Shown one piece after another: positions 54,722 through 58,971 of a stretch of 64,000 bases of DNA. The notes under the pieces were generated by a model, which had not been told where the DNA came from, ran no database searches, and saw only the letters and a list, made by a program, of their open reading frames with translations. The position numbers and the translations under genes are program-made. Origin of the DNA: an uncultured bacterium (GTDB lineage Bacteria; Patescibacteriota; Minisyncoccia; Phycocordibacterales; DATDWN01); the NCBI GenBank assembly GCA_963727715.1, contig CAVSGX010000004.1, positions 8,455 through 72,454 of the forward strand, read 5' to 3'. Numbering within the stretch: the stretch's first letter is position 1; the number at the start of each line of letters is the position of its first letter.

Positions 54722-55170
54722 AGGTGAACCTCCACATAGAACTATATCATACTTTGTCCACAAAAGTCAAGTATAAATTTTTATACGAAAAAACCACTTT
54801 GTTTAGCGGTTTTTTCGAGCTATAAGCCGACGCTTCGGTCGGCTCCCCGACCGCAACGTCGGGGTTGTCCTTTATTTTGTTCCGTTCACCCGAGTCTTTC
54901 CTCGGTGTCAAACTGTTTTAGGACGCACAGTCATCGTCCATTGTCTGCTCAATTGAGGCAGGCAATATCGACTCAATCGTTCGACACATTCTAGGAACGC
55001 GCCGGACTTCTCGATCAGAGACCGAGAGTTTTTCAAATTGAATTATTCCACGACCAGCTTCCGCTAGCCGTGCCTTGTTACGACTTAGTCTTTGTCATTG
55101 AGCTTACCTTGGTGCCGCAAAAACGACGCTTCGGGTATTCCCAACTCCCCTGACTTGACGGGCGGATTTC

Positions 55171-55864
55171 GATAACTTTCGTTTCAGGTTCCCTGAAGTT
55201 TTTAACTTCACCATATCGCTTCCCGTTATTCACGACTTTGGACGTAGCGAGCGGATTTCCCGCACTACGCGAGTTCGATAGTTTCTAGAACTAACGATTT
55301 TGTCCTTCATTTTGTTTTTCAACAAAACTACTACGACGCAGCTGACTTCCAGCACTAATTTTTGGAGTCAAGATTTTCACTTGACAAACACATTTTTTTC
55401 TTATTATTTCATAGGAGGTACTTCGTATGCACATATTTGAGGTTTTTGTATGTGTTGTTTTGGCAATCATGTTTCTTCCTTTGCCAATTTTCTTTTTGCG
55501 TTTTATTGCTTGTATAATAACTGATGCTGATTAAATCTAATCAGTTATTAGTCGACTTGAGTGATTTTGTCAAATCACTCTTTTCTTTTTCCAAAAATTA
55601 GTGCTGGATCTCCCAGGGTCATTTATATTTCTGTTCCAAACATCCGAATCGAGATTTTCGATAAGATTTATCGTGTGCTTCCTTCTGACTCACCGCAGAA
55701 GTCGCACATCTCTTTTTTTTGATTCGGCTGCTCTTTGCTACTAGGATCCTTCAGTCCAGTCATTGCTGATTGTGGACCTACCCGTTCGCTATTTTCACAC
55801 TCCTGTGAAAAGTTGGATTTGAACCAACTAGATATATAAACTGCCTGGCGCATTTTATTCTGAG
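55171..55864 (-). other. ~0.7-kb insertion (putative intron) in 16S after 'CTTGTAC' (E. coli ~1395), no homing endonuclease ORF
   Basis: The exon breaks after CTTGTAC and resumes at '...ATCCGCCCGTCAAGTCAGGGGAG'. Confidence 0.6.
55351..55605 (+). mobile_element. IR-flanked mini-element copy A (terminal IR 'AGCACTAATTTTTGGA') carrying an SD-led 35-aa hydrophobic ORF (55427..55534) and a terminator, antisense to the 16S
   Basis: Terminal inverted repeats at 55351-55372 and 55585-55605. 'ATAGGAGGTACTTCGT-ATG'. ORF 'MHIFEVFVCVVLAIMFLPLPIFFLRFIACIITDAD'. Hairpin plus 'TTTTCTTTTT'. Confidence 0.55.
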
Positions 55865-56099
55865 TACAAGACTTGAGAACGTATTCACCGCGGTATGTCT
55901 GACCCGCGATTACTAGCAATTCCAACTTCATGGGGTCGAGTTTCAGCCCCCAATCTGAACTGGGGCGACTTTTCTAAGGATTGGCTCAGGGTTACCCCGT
56001 CGCAACCTGTTGTAGTCGCCATTGTATTATGTGTGTAGCCCAAGGTATCAAAGGGACATGCTGATCTGGCGTCATCCTCGCCTTCCTCCCAGCTCCAGT

Positions 56100-56215
56100 T
56101 GCGCAAGATGAACGAACTCGGTTAAGACCGAATACGGACATCGATGTTTGCACAGAGAGACATCTACTTATGATGTTCTTGTGCAACTGGAGCTGGGCAG
56201 TCTCGCCTGATACTT
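56100..56215 (-). other. rRNA expansion segment: ~100-nt extra hairpin between 16S positions ~1114 and ~1173
   Basis: Perfect 21-nt inverted repeat 'ccagctccagttgcgcaaga...tcttgtgcaactggagctggg' inserted between conserved blocks. Confidence 0.6.
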
Positions 56216-56641
56216 ATAACAGACAACGAGGGTTGCGTTCGTTACCCCACTTAAGGGAACAATTCAAATCACGAACTGACGACGACCATGCATCACCTGC
56301 CTAACTGTCCTTGTGGGACCGCAAACGTTTCTGCTTGCATTCAGTTAGGTTTCAAACCTTGGTAAGATTCTTCGTTTATCATCGAATTAAACCACATAAT
56401 CCACTGCTTGTGCAAGTCCCCGTCTATTCCTTTGAGTTTTAGCCTTGCGGCCGTACTACCCAGGCGCTTGACTTAACGCGTTAGCTACGCCACGCAGAGG
56501 GTCGATACTCCGCATAGCTAGTCAAGATCGTTTAGGGCGTGGACTACTGGGGTCTTAATGTTACTTCAAAATTTTGGGAAATTTTGAGGCACAACATTTC
56601 TGTTGTACTCTGCATGTTGCCATGCAGTTCGGACTATATCT

Positions 56642-57403
56642 TTATCTGTATGTATTCCACTTAGCTTTTTTCTTTTCATATTCTGCTATTATGACAGATT
56701 CTGAAAAATTACTAAGAGAAACCATTTCAGATATCCAGCGTTCTTGAAATTGAGAGTTTTTATATAGAAGAATTGCTTTGGATAACATGCTCGATACTGG
56801 TATGTATGGCAGTATGATACGCAAGAATTTTTTTAATTCTTCTTGTGACCTAATCCATAACCGCCAGTATTGTTCTTGCTTCCCATCTTGCTTACGCCCG
56901 ACGGGGGCAACAATGGCACGAACATCCCAAACAACTTTAAGATAGCGAGCTAGCATTTCGACTGATTGTTTTGAAAAACCATCAGTACAAAACACACCTT
57001 TTCTGGCGCCGTAACCAATAAGCGAACCGTCATCACACCACCAAACGGCGAGTGATAACGCTGTCATTTGATTAAGCCACCTACGCTCTATAAGCAATTT
57101 ATTTTGTTTGTGAGTTAAATGATGAAGTTCTGTAAGAGATGAAGTTCGCCTACTGGCAAATCTCCATTTTTTGTTCTTACTGTATCCATCAGGTTCCTGC
57201 ACAAACACACTGCTATCTCCTGCTATCTCTTTGAGAGCTTGCGCTTTCCATAAGAGATAATCTTTCTGCATTTCCGAATGACGAATTTGTAAATTCGCAT
57301 TGAAATAATTTTTTTGGATTTTTAGCGAGCCGTCTCCAAGGATTGAACCGAAGATAATAGCTTTCGCTTCATCCGACAAAGGCACATATTTCGTATCATG
57401 CAT
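56642..57403 (-). CDS. LAGLIDADG homing endonuclease (intron-encoded)
   Basis: 'GSILGDGSL' is a LAGLIDADG motif. It is on the same strand as the rRNA and inside the insertion. Confidence 0.8.
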   Translation of the reverse strand: MHDTKYVPLSDEAKAIIFGSILGDGSLKIQKNYFNANLQIRHSEMQKDYLLWKAQALKEIAGDSSVFVQEPDGYSKNKKWRFASRRTSSLTELHHLTHKQNKLLIERRWLNQMTALSLAVWWCDDGSLIGYGARKGVFCTDGFSKQSVEMLARYLKVVWDVRAIVAPVGRKQDGKQEQYWRLWIRSQEELKKFLRIILPYIPVSSMLSKAILLYKNSQFQERWISEMVSLSNFSESVIIAEYEKKKAKWNTYR

Positions 57404-57480
57404 ATAATTTTAAGTTAATTGCACGACGACAGAATAGCACCAACTATCTTACTCAATTTCATAGTCTCTACGGGGTTTCT

Positions 57481-57712
57481 AGCACTAATTTTTGGAGTCA
57501 AGCTTTGACTTGACAAGATTCATTTTATGATTTAACATCAATTCCAGGAGATTAACTCGATGGAATTTATTATGATATTGATCTGTTTAGGAGTTTTTTG
57601 TTTGATCACAGATATGATGATAACTGTTGCTATTGATATCTGTGAATGGATCGATCATTACCTGCACCGGCTTTTATAGCGGTGCAGTTTTCTTTTTCCA
57701 AAAATTAGTGCT
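57481..57712 (+). mobile_element. IR-flanked mini-element copy B carrying an SD-led 39-aa hydrophobic ORF (57560..57679) and a terminator, antisense to the 16S
   Basis: Same termini as copy A (57481-57502 and 57692-57712). 'CCAGGAGATTAACTCG-ATG'. ORF 'MEFIMILICLGVFCLITDMMITVAIDICEWIDHYLHRLL'. The stop codon sits in a terminator hairpin followed by 'TTTTCTTTTT'. Confidence 0.55.
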
Positions 57713-58971
57713 AGAAACTTCCCTCGGGGTTGTCCATACGAAATCAGTAAATTTCATATTGTATGGAGTTTCCCCGATATAGCTAGATTACAATTCTATG
57801 TCACCATAGAAAAGAGACACCTTCGTCCTATATTTTATTAGCGGGACTGGATTATCTAATCCCATTCGCTACCCACGCTTTCGTGTTTCAGTGTCAGGAG
57901 TGGCCCAATGTGCTGCCTTCGCTTTCGGTGTTCCCCATGATATCAACGGATTTCACCCCTACTCCATGAGTTCCACACATCCCTGCCATCCTCTAGTCGT
58001 GCCGTTTCGCTCGCACTTCCGGGGTTAAGCCCCGGGTTTTAACAAGCGACTAACACAACCACCTACACACCCTTTACGCCCAATAATTCCGGATAACGCT
58101 CGGGGCACTCGTATTACCGCTGCTGCTGGCACGAGTTTAGCAACCCCTTATTCTTGAGGTACTATCAATAAACTTTCTCCCTCACAAAAGATGTTTACGA
58201 CCCAGAGGGTCTTCATCCATCACGCGGCGTCGCTCGATCAGGCTTTCGCCCATTGTCGAATATTCTCGGCTGCTGCCACCCGTAGGTGTATGGACCGTCT
58301 CTCAGTTCCATCGGTGGGGGCCAAGCTCTCACTCCCCCTACGCGTCATAGCCTTGGTAGGCCGTTACCCTACCAACTAGCTGATACGACGCAGACTTTTC
58401 CTTTAGCGATAAATCTTTCCTCCGAAGAGAATATCAAGTATTACCTAATCTTTCGACTAGCTATTCCTGACTAAAGGGTAAATCTCTGCGCATTATTACC
58501 TCGTTCGCCACTGTCCTTGCGGACCGTTTGACTTGCATGCCTTATCCACGCCGCCAGCGTTCATCCTGAGCTAGGATCAAACTCTTAATAAAGATTTATT
58601 AAGATCTATCTTTTAAGAACGGAACAAAATAAAGGAAAATACTTTTGGTATCGCGATTATTTTATTTTTCTTTGATGAACACTGATTGTGTTTTTGGTTG
58701 ATTGTTATTGATGTTGTGAATTTTGCTGAATTCACTTTCCGGAATTATTTTAAAAGAATATTTTGCATCCGACTGTTTTTGACAAAACAGCCGAACTGTA
58801 AAACTTGCACGTTTTACATTCTCTAAATAAAGCCGACGTTTTCAGTCGGCTCCCCGACCTAATGCGTCGGGGTTCATTTTGATTGTCAACGAACTATCCA
58901 GTAAAGAAAATGCCTTTTGAGGCACCTAGATAGTATAGCCACGCCAAAGAAAAAGTCAAGTCAATCAGCGG

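Follow-up and report, generated by a model that had tools for sequence, protein, structure and literature searches.

Antisense inverted-repeat cassettes nested in the introns of a split 16S rRNA gene from the Candidate Phyla Radiation

Introduction

Insertion sequences in the rRNA genes of the Candidate Phyla Radiation (CPR, Patescibacteria) were reportedly described by Brown et al. in 2015. This work deals with one such gene, the 16S rRNA gene on the minus strand of a 64,000-nt stretch of contig CAVSGX010000004.1 from an uncultured bacterium (the whole stretch is called the window below, and positions are counted from its first letter), and with two short cassettes bounded by terminal inverted repeats (TIRs) that are nested in its introns, antisense to the rRNA. 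With considerable confidence, the locus is read as a single functional 16S rRNA gene of a Parcubacteria-group bacterium, with two introns, an extension of helix 40 and the nested cassettes.

Outside this group, the 16S gene of Thiomargarita is said to be interrupted at conserved sites by group I introns and by a LAGLIDADG-bearing group II intron near position 1400, with splicing shown experimentally (Salman et al. 2012). The present locus differs in phylum, in being known from sequence alone, and in its nested antisense cassettes, which were not reported there. For CPR, the survey of Tsurumaki et al. 2024 (PMC11270868) found group-I-like introns with LAGLIDADG_2/3 genes at the sites 16IS5/16IS10, group-II-like introns at 16S position ~1400 (16IS9) and short unclassified helix-tip insertions. 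The window shares with that survey the host clade, the two insertion regions, the endonuclease family and the class of group-II-like introns without an open reading frame (ORF). The survey, unlike the present work, annotated only ORFs with Pfam domains, and the nested cassettes do not appear in its description, which mentions no inverted repeats, promoters, antisense genes or palindromes. The split gene, both intron classes, the endonuclease family, the helix-tip insertions and the loss of the anti-Shine-Dalgarno (anti-SD) sequence are already documented for CPR (PMC11270868, PMC9297842), and the splitting of the 16S gene alone is a further example of this documented peculiarity. No description of the cassettes was found in the wider full-text literature either; coverage there was incomplete, and the negative is no more than absence of evidence.

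Mobile insertion cassettes (MICs) and miniature inverted-repeat transposable elements (MITEs) are non-autonomous elements bounded by TIRs, and MICs such as MIC231 carry passenger genes. The terms are used here as in PMC6199540 and PMC3129680. The cassettes resemble these elements in their short TIRs, the lack of a transposase, the presence of several copies, their variable passengers and the occurrence of related cargo at unrelated sites. They differ in that they show no target-site duplication, have no cognate insertion sequence that could be found, and lie only at the tips of rRNA-intron hairpins and in a fixed orientation; moreover, a conserved promoter/terminator frame surrounds a hypervariable cargo, and the loop of the empty site is replaced rather than simply interrupted. 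Antisense homing-endonuclease genes are known from group I introns of myxomycete nuclear rDNA (PMC9548176). As in the cassettes, a gene with its own expression signals lies there opposite the rRNA strand, in a peripheral element of an rDNA group I intron, but that system is eukaryotic, its signals are of the Pol II type and its cargo is the intron's own endonuclease, whereas the cassettes carry unrelated small-protein or RNA cargo in a TIR-bounded unit beside a sense-strand endonuclease. The cassettes seem to be a so far undescribed variant of non-autonomous mobile element, one that has a standard expression frame and is restricted to CPR rRNA introns.

Results and Discussion

Layout of the 16S rRNA gene

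The bacterial small-subunit model of Rfam (RF00177) gave three colinear matches on the minus strand, from 58592 to about 55049, which together span model positions 1-1520. This agrees with an earlier reading made from the letters alone (the sequence-only reading), in which the 16S blocks lay in order on the minus strand, split by two large insertions; the two nested antisense inverted-repeat cassettes and the missing anti-SD tail had escaped it. The covariance-model check proposed with that reading was run: the ordered match to RF00177 was accompanied by sub-threshold scores for the intron models RF00028 and RF01998, given below, and by no match to RF00029. Exon and intron boundaries were set by reading the strand and by alignment to relatives (comparison loci carry L numbers). 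E. coli positions were taken from primer-anchored motifs (785-GGATTAGATACCC and 1392-GYACACACCGCCCGT); numbering by alignment was dropped, as the rrs copy used (L030) has only 1519 nt and displaces the positions. The features of the gene are as follows.

58592..57762, minus strand: RF00177 block 1, 672 bits, 5' half of the model
56668..55812, minus strand: RF00177 block 2, 490.8 bits, roughly model positions 790-1395
55165..55049, minus strand: RF00177 block 3, 63.9 bits, model positions 1390-1520
57854..58592, minus strand: 16S exon 1 (E. coli ~1-793), from RF00177 (672 bits) and sequence; 3' end ...GGGAUUAGAU; the boundary may slide by one A
56554..57853, minus strand: intron 1, 1300 nt, group-I-like, at U793/A794 (boundary may slide 1 nt), from sub-threshold RF00028 matches and comparison with L002/L003/L005
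55861..56553, minus strand: 16S exon 2 (E. coli 794-1398), from RF00177 (490.8 bits) and intron-less relatives; 3' end ...CUUGUACUCA
55166..55860, minus strand: intron 2, 695 nt, ORF-less, group-II-like, 16IS9 type, at A1398/C1399; boundaries from L002/L005; RF01998 32.8 bits
55049..55165, minus strand: 16S exon 3 (h44-h45), from RF00177 (63.9 bits); begins CCGCCCGUCA at 55165
58617-58639 (5' arm) with 54865..54887 (3' arm), minus strand: leader/trailer processing stem of pre-16S, inverted repeat I1, 23 nt, 96% complementary
54427-54354, minus strand: tRNA-Ile, after the 16S gene

The predicted ligated-exon junctions, with a slash at the joint, are GGGAUUAGAU/ACCCCAGUAGUCC and CUUGUACUCA/CCGCCCGUCA, or in RNA letters GGGAUUAGAU/ACCCCAG and GUACUCA/CCGCCCG; the end of exon 2 carries the clade-specific change A1396U. 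The leader/trailer stem encloses the whole gene in the manner of a pre-16S processing stem and, since it reaches 54865, the transcript unit extends past helix 45. The end at 55040 given in the sequence-only reading is about right for helix 45 and too short for the transcript unit. The order SecD-SecF-16S of the window matches that of two Taylorbacteria metagenome-assembled genomes (MAGs), and an identical SecF protein is encoded by a contig in ERR11594402. The 64-kb window contains neither a 23S nor a 5S rRNA gene; the rRNA operon is thus either interrupted or unlinked at this locus.

Nested cassettes

Both introns carry one cassette at the tip of a peripheral hairpin. The TIR is 16 nt long (AGCACTAATTTTTGGA) and exact in both cassettes of the window, whose length from TIR to TIR is 232-255 nt. 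The 15-mer GCACTAATTTTTGGA occurs in the window in four exact copies, arranged as two inverted pairs with one pair per intron, and in shuffled sequences it was found 0 times at 0 mismatches. The parts of the two cassettes are listed below.

57475..57718, plus strand (antisense to the rRNA): cassette 1, at the P6 tip of intron 1, with a 22-bp perfect stem 57475-57496/57697-57718
57481-57496 and 57697-57712: TIRs of cassette 1
57510-57515 and 57533-57538, plus strand: predicted promoter of cassette 1, -35 TTGACA and -10 TAACAT
57546-57550, plus strand: Shine-Dalgarno (SD) sequence AGGAG of cassette 1
57560-57679, plus strand: ORF of cassette 1, 39 amino acids (aa), MEFIMILICLGVFCLITDMMITVAIDICEWIDHYLHRLL, hydrophobic
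about 57660-57697, plus strand: predicted terminator of cassette 1, hairpin and T-run
55348..55608, plus strand (antisense to the rRNA): cassette 2, at a hairpin tip of intron 2, with a 19-bp perfect stem 55348-55366/55590-55608
55351-55366 and 55590-55605: TIRs of cassette 2
55381-55386, plus strand: predicted -35 box TTGACA of cassette 2
55413-55418, plus strand: SD sequence AGGAGG of cassette 2
55427-55534, plus strand: ORF of cassette 2, 35 aa, MHIFEVFVCVVLAIMFLPLPIFFLRFIACIITDAD, hydrophobic
55559-55580 plus TTTTCTTTTT, plus strand: predicted terminator of cassette 2

The two units are built alike. In both, a hairpin GTCAAG-N-CTTGAC overlaps the TTGACA box, a -10 region follows, the SD stands 8-9 nt before the ATG, and a GC-rich hairpin is succeeded by TTTTCTTTTT, which extends into the right repeat; each peptide has one predicted transmembrane (TM) segment. 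With the cassette in place, P6 folds in the rRNA sense into a single closed helix (-88.5 kcal/mol, z=-10.9). Small ORFs led by both a promoter and an SD number only three in the 64-kb window, all of them in the rRNA locus.

A mini-gene of the same design as the cassette cargo, in which no inverted repeats were seen, lies in the spacer between 16S and tRNA-Ile (54497-54721, minus strand, rRNA sense). It consists of a 74-aa ORF with two TM segments and a GGAGG SD, preceded by a promoter TTGACT-N17-TATGAT at about 54760-54790 and followed by an intrinsic terminator at about 54470-54495, right before tRNA-Ile. Its only Pfam match is a weak one to DUF5325 (E=0.0014).

The cassette family across CPR

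Further copies were sought by exact match to the left end, with a search pattern that included the promoter. Left-end matches were obtained at 10 loci in species-representative genomes and at 13 in metagenomes. There are 21 distinct cassettes, those of the window included, 170-371 nt long and located in 16S and 23S genes of CPR (Parcubacteria, Zambryskibacteria, Minisyncoccia and MAGs labelled Saccharibacteria); sister cassettes are present in the Rifle and Hainich groundwater sets. The TIRs of the other 19 are near-exact, with 0-2 mismatches. The frame between them is constant: a -35 box stands at nt 29-31 in every cassette (21/21), a good -10 box follows at 16-18 nt spacing in 18 of the 21 and is TG-extended in 11, an SD-led ATG at nt 73-90 is present in 15, and a terminator-like hairpin with a T-run precedes the right repeat in 19. 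On the reverse strand, an SD-led ORF occurs in 2/21.

This constancy bears on a rival explanation, namely that the cassettes are structural, MITE-like hairpin insertions only, with promoter, SD and ORF arising fortuitously in AT-rich sequence and nothing being expressed. Such an origin would fit the unconserved cargo, the orphan peptide of the window, a host that seemingly does not use SDs, and the ease with which hydrophobic ORFs arise from AT-rich sequence. It does not fit the fixed -35 box, the frequent good -10 box, the SD-led ATG held within a 17-nt window on one strand and rare on the other, the hairpin and T-run placed directly before the right TIR, or the confinement of the sole three promoter-plus-SD-led small ORFs of 64 kb to the rRNA locus. 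We consider purely structural insertions quite unlikely.

The cargo is unrelated between copies and comprises about ten peptides with one or two TM segments, at least six soluble small proteins and four inserts without an ORF. At least one TM segment is predicted in 9-10 of 16 cargo proteins, and a Pfam scan of 18 cargo proteins gave nothing credible. The cassettes of L023 (13286-13534) and L025 (920-1166), although at unrelated sites, hold a homologous structured RNA of ~135 nt, 86% identical, with 53 predicted pairs of which 4 are compensatory and 0 broken; Rfam found no family for the L025 RNA. Other ORF-less cargos are carried by the cassettes of L007 and L014. L007 also has two matches to the tRNA model (1767-1835 and 1892-1978) within its 23S gene span (180-4827), presumably in an insertion.

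Every cassette with identifiable context lies within a 16S or 23S gene. Wherever the rRNA strand is known, the cassette is antisense to it (16/16), and four more are antisense as judged from their P6-type flanks. The bases outside the TIRs differ from site to site and are nearly always complementary to each other, with a mismatch of the innermost pair in L018 and L025; the flanks therefore prolong the host hairpin. Empty sites are short ordinary hairpins, as seen for P6 in L003 and L032 and for the matching hairpin of the L003 intron-2 homologue. At an empty 23S intron site in L028, an 18-nt loop stands where L018 holds a cassette, the original loop having been replaced. Identities of flanks, ends and cargo were compared for copies at the same and at different sites.

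Same site (window cassette 2, L013, L029): flanks 73-85%, ends 92-94%, cargo 54-60% (the level of unrelated sequences)
Different sites (L023, 23S 5' region; L025, P6 of a 16S intron 1): flanks 58-59% (the level of unrelated sequences), ends 83-89%, cargo 86%

The unit thus moves from one site to another that is not homologous, and the cargo differs at one and the same site. Anatomy, family membership, constant frame, host range, orientation rule and these signatures of mobility can all be read directly from the sequences compared. A phage origin was rejected, as no copy was found in viral contigs.

In L005/L006 (4640-4930) and L031 (3679-3952), this P6 tip is taken by a second cassette family, with repeats TGTGAATTTCAT(T/G).. 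and ..ATGAAATTCACA. It is oriented in the rRNA sense and has an SD and an ORF of 54-60 aa, with no promoter and no T-run terminator.

Proposed working of the cassettes

Peripheral tips such as P6 are classic places where inserts are tolerated. In the intron RNA, the TIRs together with the host stem would form the perfect helix of 19-22 bp, which may insulate the insert so that the ribozyme core can fold. On the opposite DNA strand, a full expression unit is predicted, with a sigma-70-type promoter, an SD, a small ORF or small RNA and an intrinsic terminator. What is said here of cargo expression, of cargo function and of the reason for the fixed orientation is inference. Transcription of the cargo would start at its own promoter; the rRNA precursor would interfere with it and pair with the transcript. 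The antisense orientation would most simply reflect selection, since a terminator on the sense strand would abort pre-rRNA synthesis; this explanation is supported by the second P6 family, which is oriented in the sense direction and lacks both promoter and T-run. The cassettes appear to move between unrelated intron hairpins without target duplication, with cargo differing even at the same site.

We tentatively propose that the TIR units form a class of mobile expression cassette not described before, which specialises in the tips of rRNA-intron hairpins in CPR. A fixed chassis (TIR, hairpin-embedded -35 box, SD position, terminator, TIR) would hold an exchangeable small-protein or RNA cargo, always antisense and with canonical GGAGG SDs in hosts that lack the anti-SD. 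The proposal is put forward as plausible, somewhat short of probable.

Several observations weigh against the account of the cassettes given above. For the 39-aa peptide, the sole match among 1.84 billion representatives is one 100%-identical entry of 39 aa; as this orphan peptide also has no Pfam match, selection on the window peptides is unproven. The cassette ORFs have GGAGG-type SDs, whereas the host 16S has no CCUCC and SD-like motifs precede only 1/43 of its long ORFs. This contrast hints that translation follows a special route or that the cargo is expressed in another cell. Target-site duplications, sought as direct repeats, were absent at every cassette site. No autonomous partner with the same TIRs was found, each left end having a right end within 900 nt, although a search pattern containing the promoter would miss such an element. 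The IS30-like transposase of the window was rejected as the mobiliser, its TIRs being unrelated.

53340-54296, plus strand: IS30-like transposase (HTH_38 plus rve), TIRs 53280-53297 and 54277-54294; abuts tRNA-Ile

The small hydrophobic peptides recall another type of module. In type I toxin-antitoxin systems (hok/sok, tisB/istR, fst), hydrophobic peptides of <60 aa are overlapped by a complementary RNA. By analogy, the cassettes might be type I toxin-antitoxin-like or growth-coupled modules, in which the peptide is a membrane toxin and the abundant pre-rRNA or intron transcript is its perfectly complementary antisense RNA, so that the peptide is made only when rRNA transcription drops, or stabilises the intron. 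The 35-39 aa length and single predicted TM segment of the window peptides would suit this, as would the TM segments in over half of the cargo proteins, the obligate antisense position in the most highly transcribed operon, and the own promoter and terminator of each unit. Against it, at least six cargo proteins are soluble and four cassettes carry RNAs rather than ORFs; there is no sequence relation to the known systems or similarity to a Pfam toxin family, the window peptide is not conserved, and terminator avoidance accounts equally well for the orientation. We know of no precedent for an rRNA intron acting as antitoxin, and toxin-antitoxin modules appear an unlikely explanation. Mobile cassettes with exchangeable cargo are retained as the working proposal.

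Intron 1 and its endonuclease

Intron 1 sits between GGGATTAGAT(A) and (A)CCCCAGTAGTCC and ends ..UUAAG. Its 1300 nt (57853..56554) correspond to the block of ~1.3 kb noticed at ~790 in the sequence-only reading. RF00028 gave two partial matches with E about 1e-6, one to P4-P5-P6 (57777-57680, 33.3 bits) and one to J8/7-P7'-P9 (56758-56610, 32.3 bits), the match being broken in two because the cassette and the ORF interrupt the model. The pairings P3 CUAGCUAU/AUAGUUGG, P4 UCGGGG/CCCCGA, P6 GGGAAGUUUCU.., P7 GACUAU/AUAGUC and P8 UCUGU/ACAGA are conserved with respect to L002, L003 and L005, and the P5 and P9-P9.2 hairpins were also located. The core thus has the helices P3-P9 and the J8/7 consensus, with AAGAUAUAGUCC identified, and the hairpins P2, P9, P9.1 and P9.2 clearly covary among the window, L002, L003 and L005.

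Other features count against a plain group I assignment. Both matches are below the RF00028 gathering score (50 bits), and no P1 of the canonical form, with U.G at the splice site, was found in the intron; instead, its 5' AAUCC pairs with exon GGAUU, which places the splice site in a loop. The boundaries of the window can be read as ...GAU/ ... UUAAG/A, i.e., with a terminal G, but the homologues in L002, L003 and L005 end ...AAUCA or ...AUUCA right before ACCCCAG and have no terminal G. In view of these observations on P1 and the terminal G, the label group-I-like is used, as in the literature.

The LAGLIDADG ORF seen on the same strand in the first block is a clear member of its family.

56642..57403, minus strand (rRNA sense): LAGLIDADG_2 homing-endonuclease ORF, 253 aa, Pfam PF03161, in the P8 loop

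The ORF matches PF03161 (LAGLIDADG_2) with E=5e-32 and 111.5 bits (cut-off 25). It is intact and has two motifs with acidic residues, ILGDGS and WCDDGS, and its last codons overlap P8'/J8-7. The closest solved structure is PDB 6x1j (E=1e-5). Homologues with 60-90% identity number 702 and come from Parcubacteria-group MAGs, named ones being Doudna-, Taylor-, Campbell-, Lipton- and Wolfebacteria. With more than 700 such homologues, and with the same architecture already published (PMC11270868), the statement that intron-bearing 16S genes occur in CPR is well founded. The candidate intron-less target of the enzyme is GGGATTAGATACCCCAGTAGTCC. By cutting intron-less 16S alleles, this P8-encoded endonuclease would spread the intron; cleavage of an intron-less site has been demonstrated for another CPR enzyme, I-ShaI (PMC11270868).

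Some relatives have extra 16S insertions that are not present in the window (L003/L004 and L032, about 3490-3770, 4157-4456 and 2775-3035). Among these are GIY-YIG ORFs close to the 5' half and, in the region of ~1080, a group I intron (RF00028, 59.6 bits). Therefore, intron content varies widely among close lineages.

Intron 2

At the site of intron 2, the intron-less relatives L002 and L005 read CTTGTACTCA/CCGCCCGTCA without interruption, so that the intron follows CTTGTACTCA (after A1398). The second block of ~0.7 kb in the sequence-only reading is thus present, with 695 nt, and begins 3 nt downstream of CTTGTAC (~1395), the motif after which it had been placed. The intron opens with GAAUAAAAUGCG and closes with ..CGAAAU. 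Close homologues are carried by L013 and L029 and a distant one by L003, and a second group-II-like intron type occupies the neighbouring site 1397 in L011 and L015. Two elements point to a group-II-like ribozyme.

55241..55271, minus strand: domain-V-like hairpin, with CGC triad (middle base G.U), U.G pair, 2-nt 3' bulge (UC) and GAAAU loop
55688..55692, minus strand: EBS1-like UGAGU in a hairpin loop, complementary to the last 5 nt of exon 2, ACUCA

The upper stem of the domain-V-like hairpin has 4 bp (GCGG/CCGC), and a hairpin of this kind is also present in the type at site 1397. Its pairs are kept through compensatory changes in a pair table of five introns, L003, L011 and L015 among them; the pairs were tabulated by script rather than on the ungapped MAFFT alignment, as L011/L015 need a one-base bulge. 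The EBS1 sequence follows the insertion site, being UGUACA at 1396 (L003, in the homologous loop), GAGUACA at 1397 (L011/L015) and UGAGU at 1398 (window), in a comparison that leaves out L013. Intron 2 would recognise its 5' exon through EBS1-IBS1 pairing, and the domain-V-like hairpin would be the catalytic element.

The model scores count both for and against the assignment. RF01998 (D1-D4) gave 32.8 bits, a supporting match just below the cut-off of 35, and in L011, of the second type, it reached 43.7 bits and is above it; RF02001 gave 18 bits and RF00029 had no match at E<10. The 5' end reads GAAUA (AAAUU in L003) instead of the consensus GUGYG, and the 3' end AU fits the consensus AY. Without an RF00029 match and GUGYG, canonical group II was rejected and group-II-like kept. 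A group I reading was discarded as well, as a U...G boundary would leave the mature rRNA 2 nt too long. Intron 2 has no long ORF and no reverse transcriptase or maturase. This agrees with the CPR survey, in which group-II-like introns occur only at 16S ~1400, 39/53 with a LAGLIDADG gene, 14/53 ORF-less and 0 with a reverse transcriptase (PMC11270868).

The 3' half of the domain-V-like hairpin (GAAAUCCGCUCGCUACGUC, 55241-55259) is 79% identical over 19 nt to the intron-exon junction GAAAU/CCGCCCGUCAAGUC (55152-55170). This resemblance may be chance or exon mimicry.

Helix 40 and the fate of the insertions

The third insertion is a short one within exon 2.

56093..56191, minus strand: 99-nt branched hairpin in the loop of helix 40, from the insert in the Rfam alignment and inverted repeat I3

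A perfect 21-nt palindromic hairpin had been noticed here. The insert is real, and its arms are 21 nt long, but they are 95% complementary with one A/C mismatch. The outer 6 bp are the native h40 stem, and the insert folds with -55.5 kcal/mol (z=-6.0 vs shuffles). In relatives, its length is about 35 nt (L005) and about 250 nt (L002). The extension would be either retained as an expansion segment or trimmed.

Both introns would be removed from the transcript to leave a colinear mature rRNA, by analogy with CPR in general, whose rRNA insertions are reported absent from transcripts (PMC11270868). The alternative is that some or all insertions are intervening sequences that RNase III or another nuclease cuts out, the ends staying unligated and the 16S rRNA fragmented, with the h40 insert possibly retained as an expansion. 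The helix-40 insert lends itself to this, being a long near-perfect stem at a helix tip and of varying length in relatives; intron 1 has no demonstrable canonical P1 and its relatives no terminal G, and RNase III-type intervening sequences were deemed likely for short CPR insertions (PMC11270868). However, positions 793 (790 loop) and 1398 (decoding centre) lie in universally conserved functional cores that would hardly tolerate a nick, both long insertions retain ribozyme-type cores with covariation, and CPR insertions are reported to be removed from transcripts. Excision without ligation is therefore regarded as rather unlikely, and removal of both introns with ligation of the exons is the reading kept here.

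The 3' end and the integrity of the gene

After helix 45, the sequence reads GGAAUAAUUCAAUUUG in place of GGAUCACCUCCUUA. Neither CACCTCCTT (with up to one mismatch) nor CCUCC is present on the minus strand downstream of helix 45. The same tail or a close variant without CCUCC is found in nine loci (L002, L005, L011, L013, L026, L029, L031, L033 and L034), and the Doudnabacteria-like L003 retains GGATCACCTCCTTT. Loss of the anti-SD motif has been described for about half of Parcubacteria (PMC9297842). As the tail is common to related loci and the loss is a published Parcubacteria trait, the missing anti-SD is a lineage trait and not evidence of a pseudogene. A third intron concealing an anti-SD exon was ruled out, there being no CACCTCCTT or CCTCC downstream and the tail being common to relatives. 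Between helix 45 and the trailer arm of the processing stem lie ~160 nt (55049-54888, minus strand), and the motif GAGUCGAUAUUG, ~60-90 nt downstream, is common to the window, L002, L026 and L029.

An rRNA pseudogene had been named in the sequence-only reading as what would refute it. The locus might accordingly be a decaying pseudogene, or else an assembly chimera made by the repeated cassette ends. The lost anti-SD tail might speak for the former, and two near-identical repeat ends of 36 and 24 nt could mislead an assembler. Yet the exon blocks are all high-scoring and colinear, the processing stem encloses the gene, and the tail without the anti-SD recurs in the nine loci above and agrees with the published trait. 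Moreover, intron 1 with its cassette is found on the independent contig L002, and intron 2 with its cassette on L013 and L029. Pseudogene and chimera are thus already largely refuted and highly improbable, and the locus is taken as an intact gene.

The ORFs of the window are in keeping with this 3' end. An SD-like motif was found for only one of the 43 ORFs of >=200 aa, and a TATAAT-like -10 box stands 7-12 nt 5' of the ATG in many of them. Such a box right before the ATG suggests leaderless mRNAs.

Conclusions

Split 16S genes matter in practice, as gene callers, primers and rRNA-based binning fail on them. The cassettes would add that selfish or accessory elements with a standard promoter/terminator frame use the rRNA introns of these minimal genomes as landing pads and form a second layer there. 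They provide about 20 natural examples of large inserts tolerated in peripheral helices of ribozymes, and they suggest that micro-genes and small RNAs, as yet unannotated, form a pool on the antisense side of the cell's busiest transcription unit. If the proposed expression is true, cargo output would be inversely coupled to rRNA transcription. Finally, GGAGG-led cassette genes in a host without SDs and without anti-SD offer a concrete handle on translation start in these organisms.

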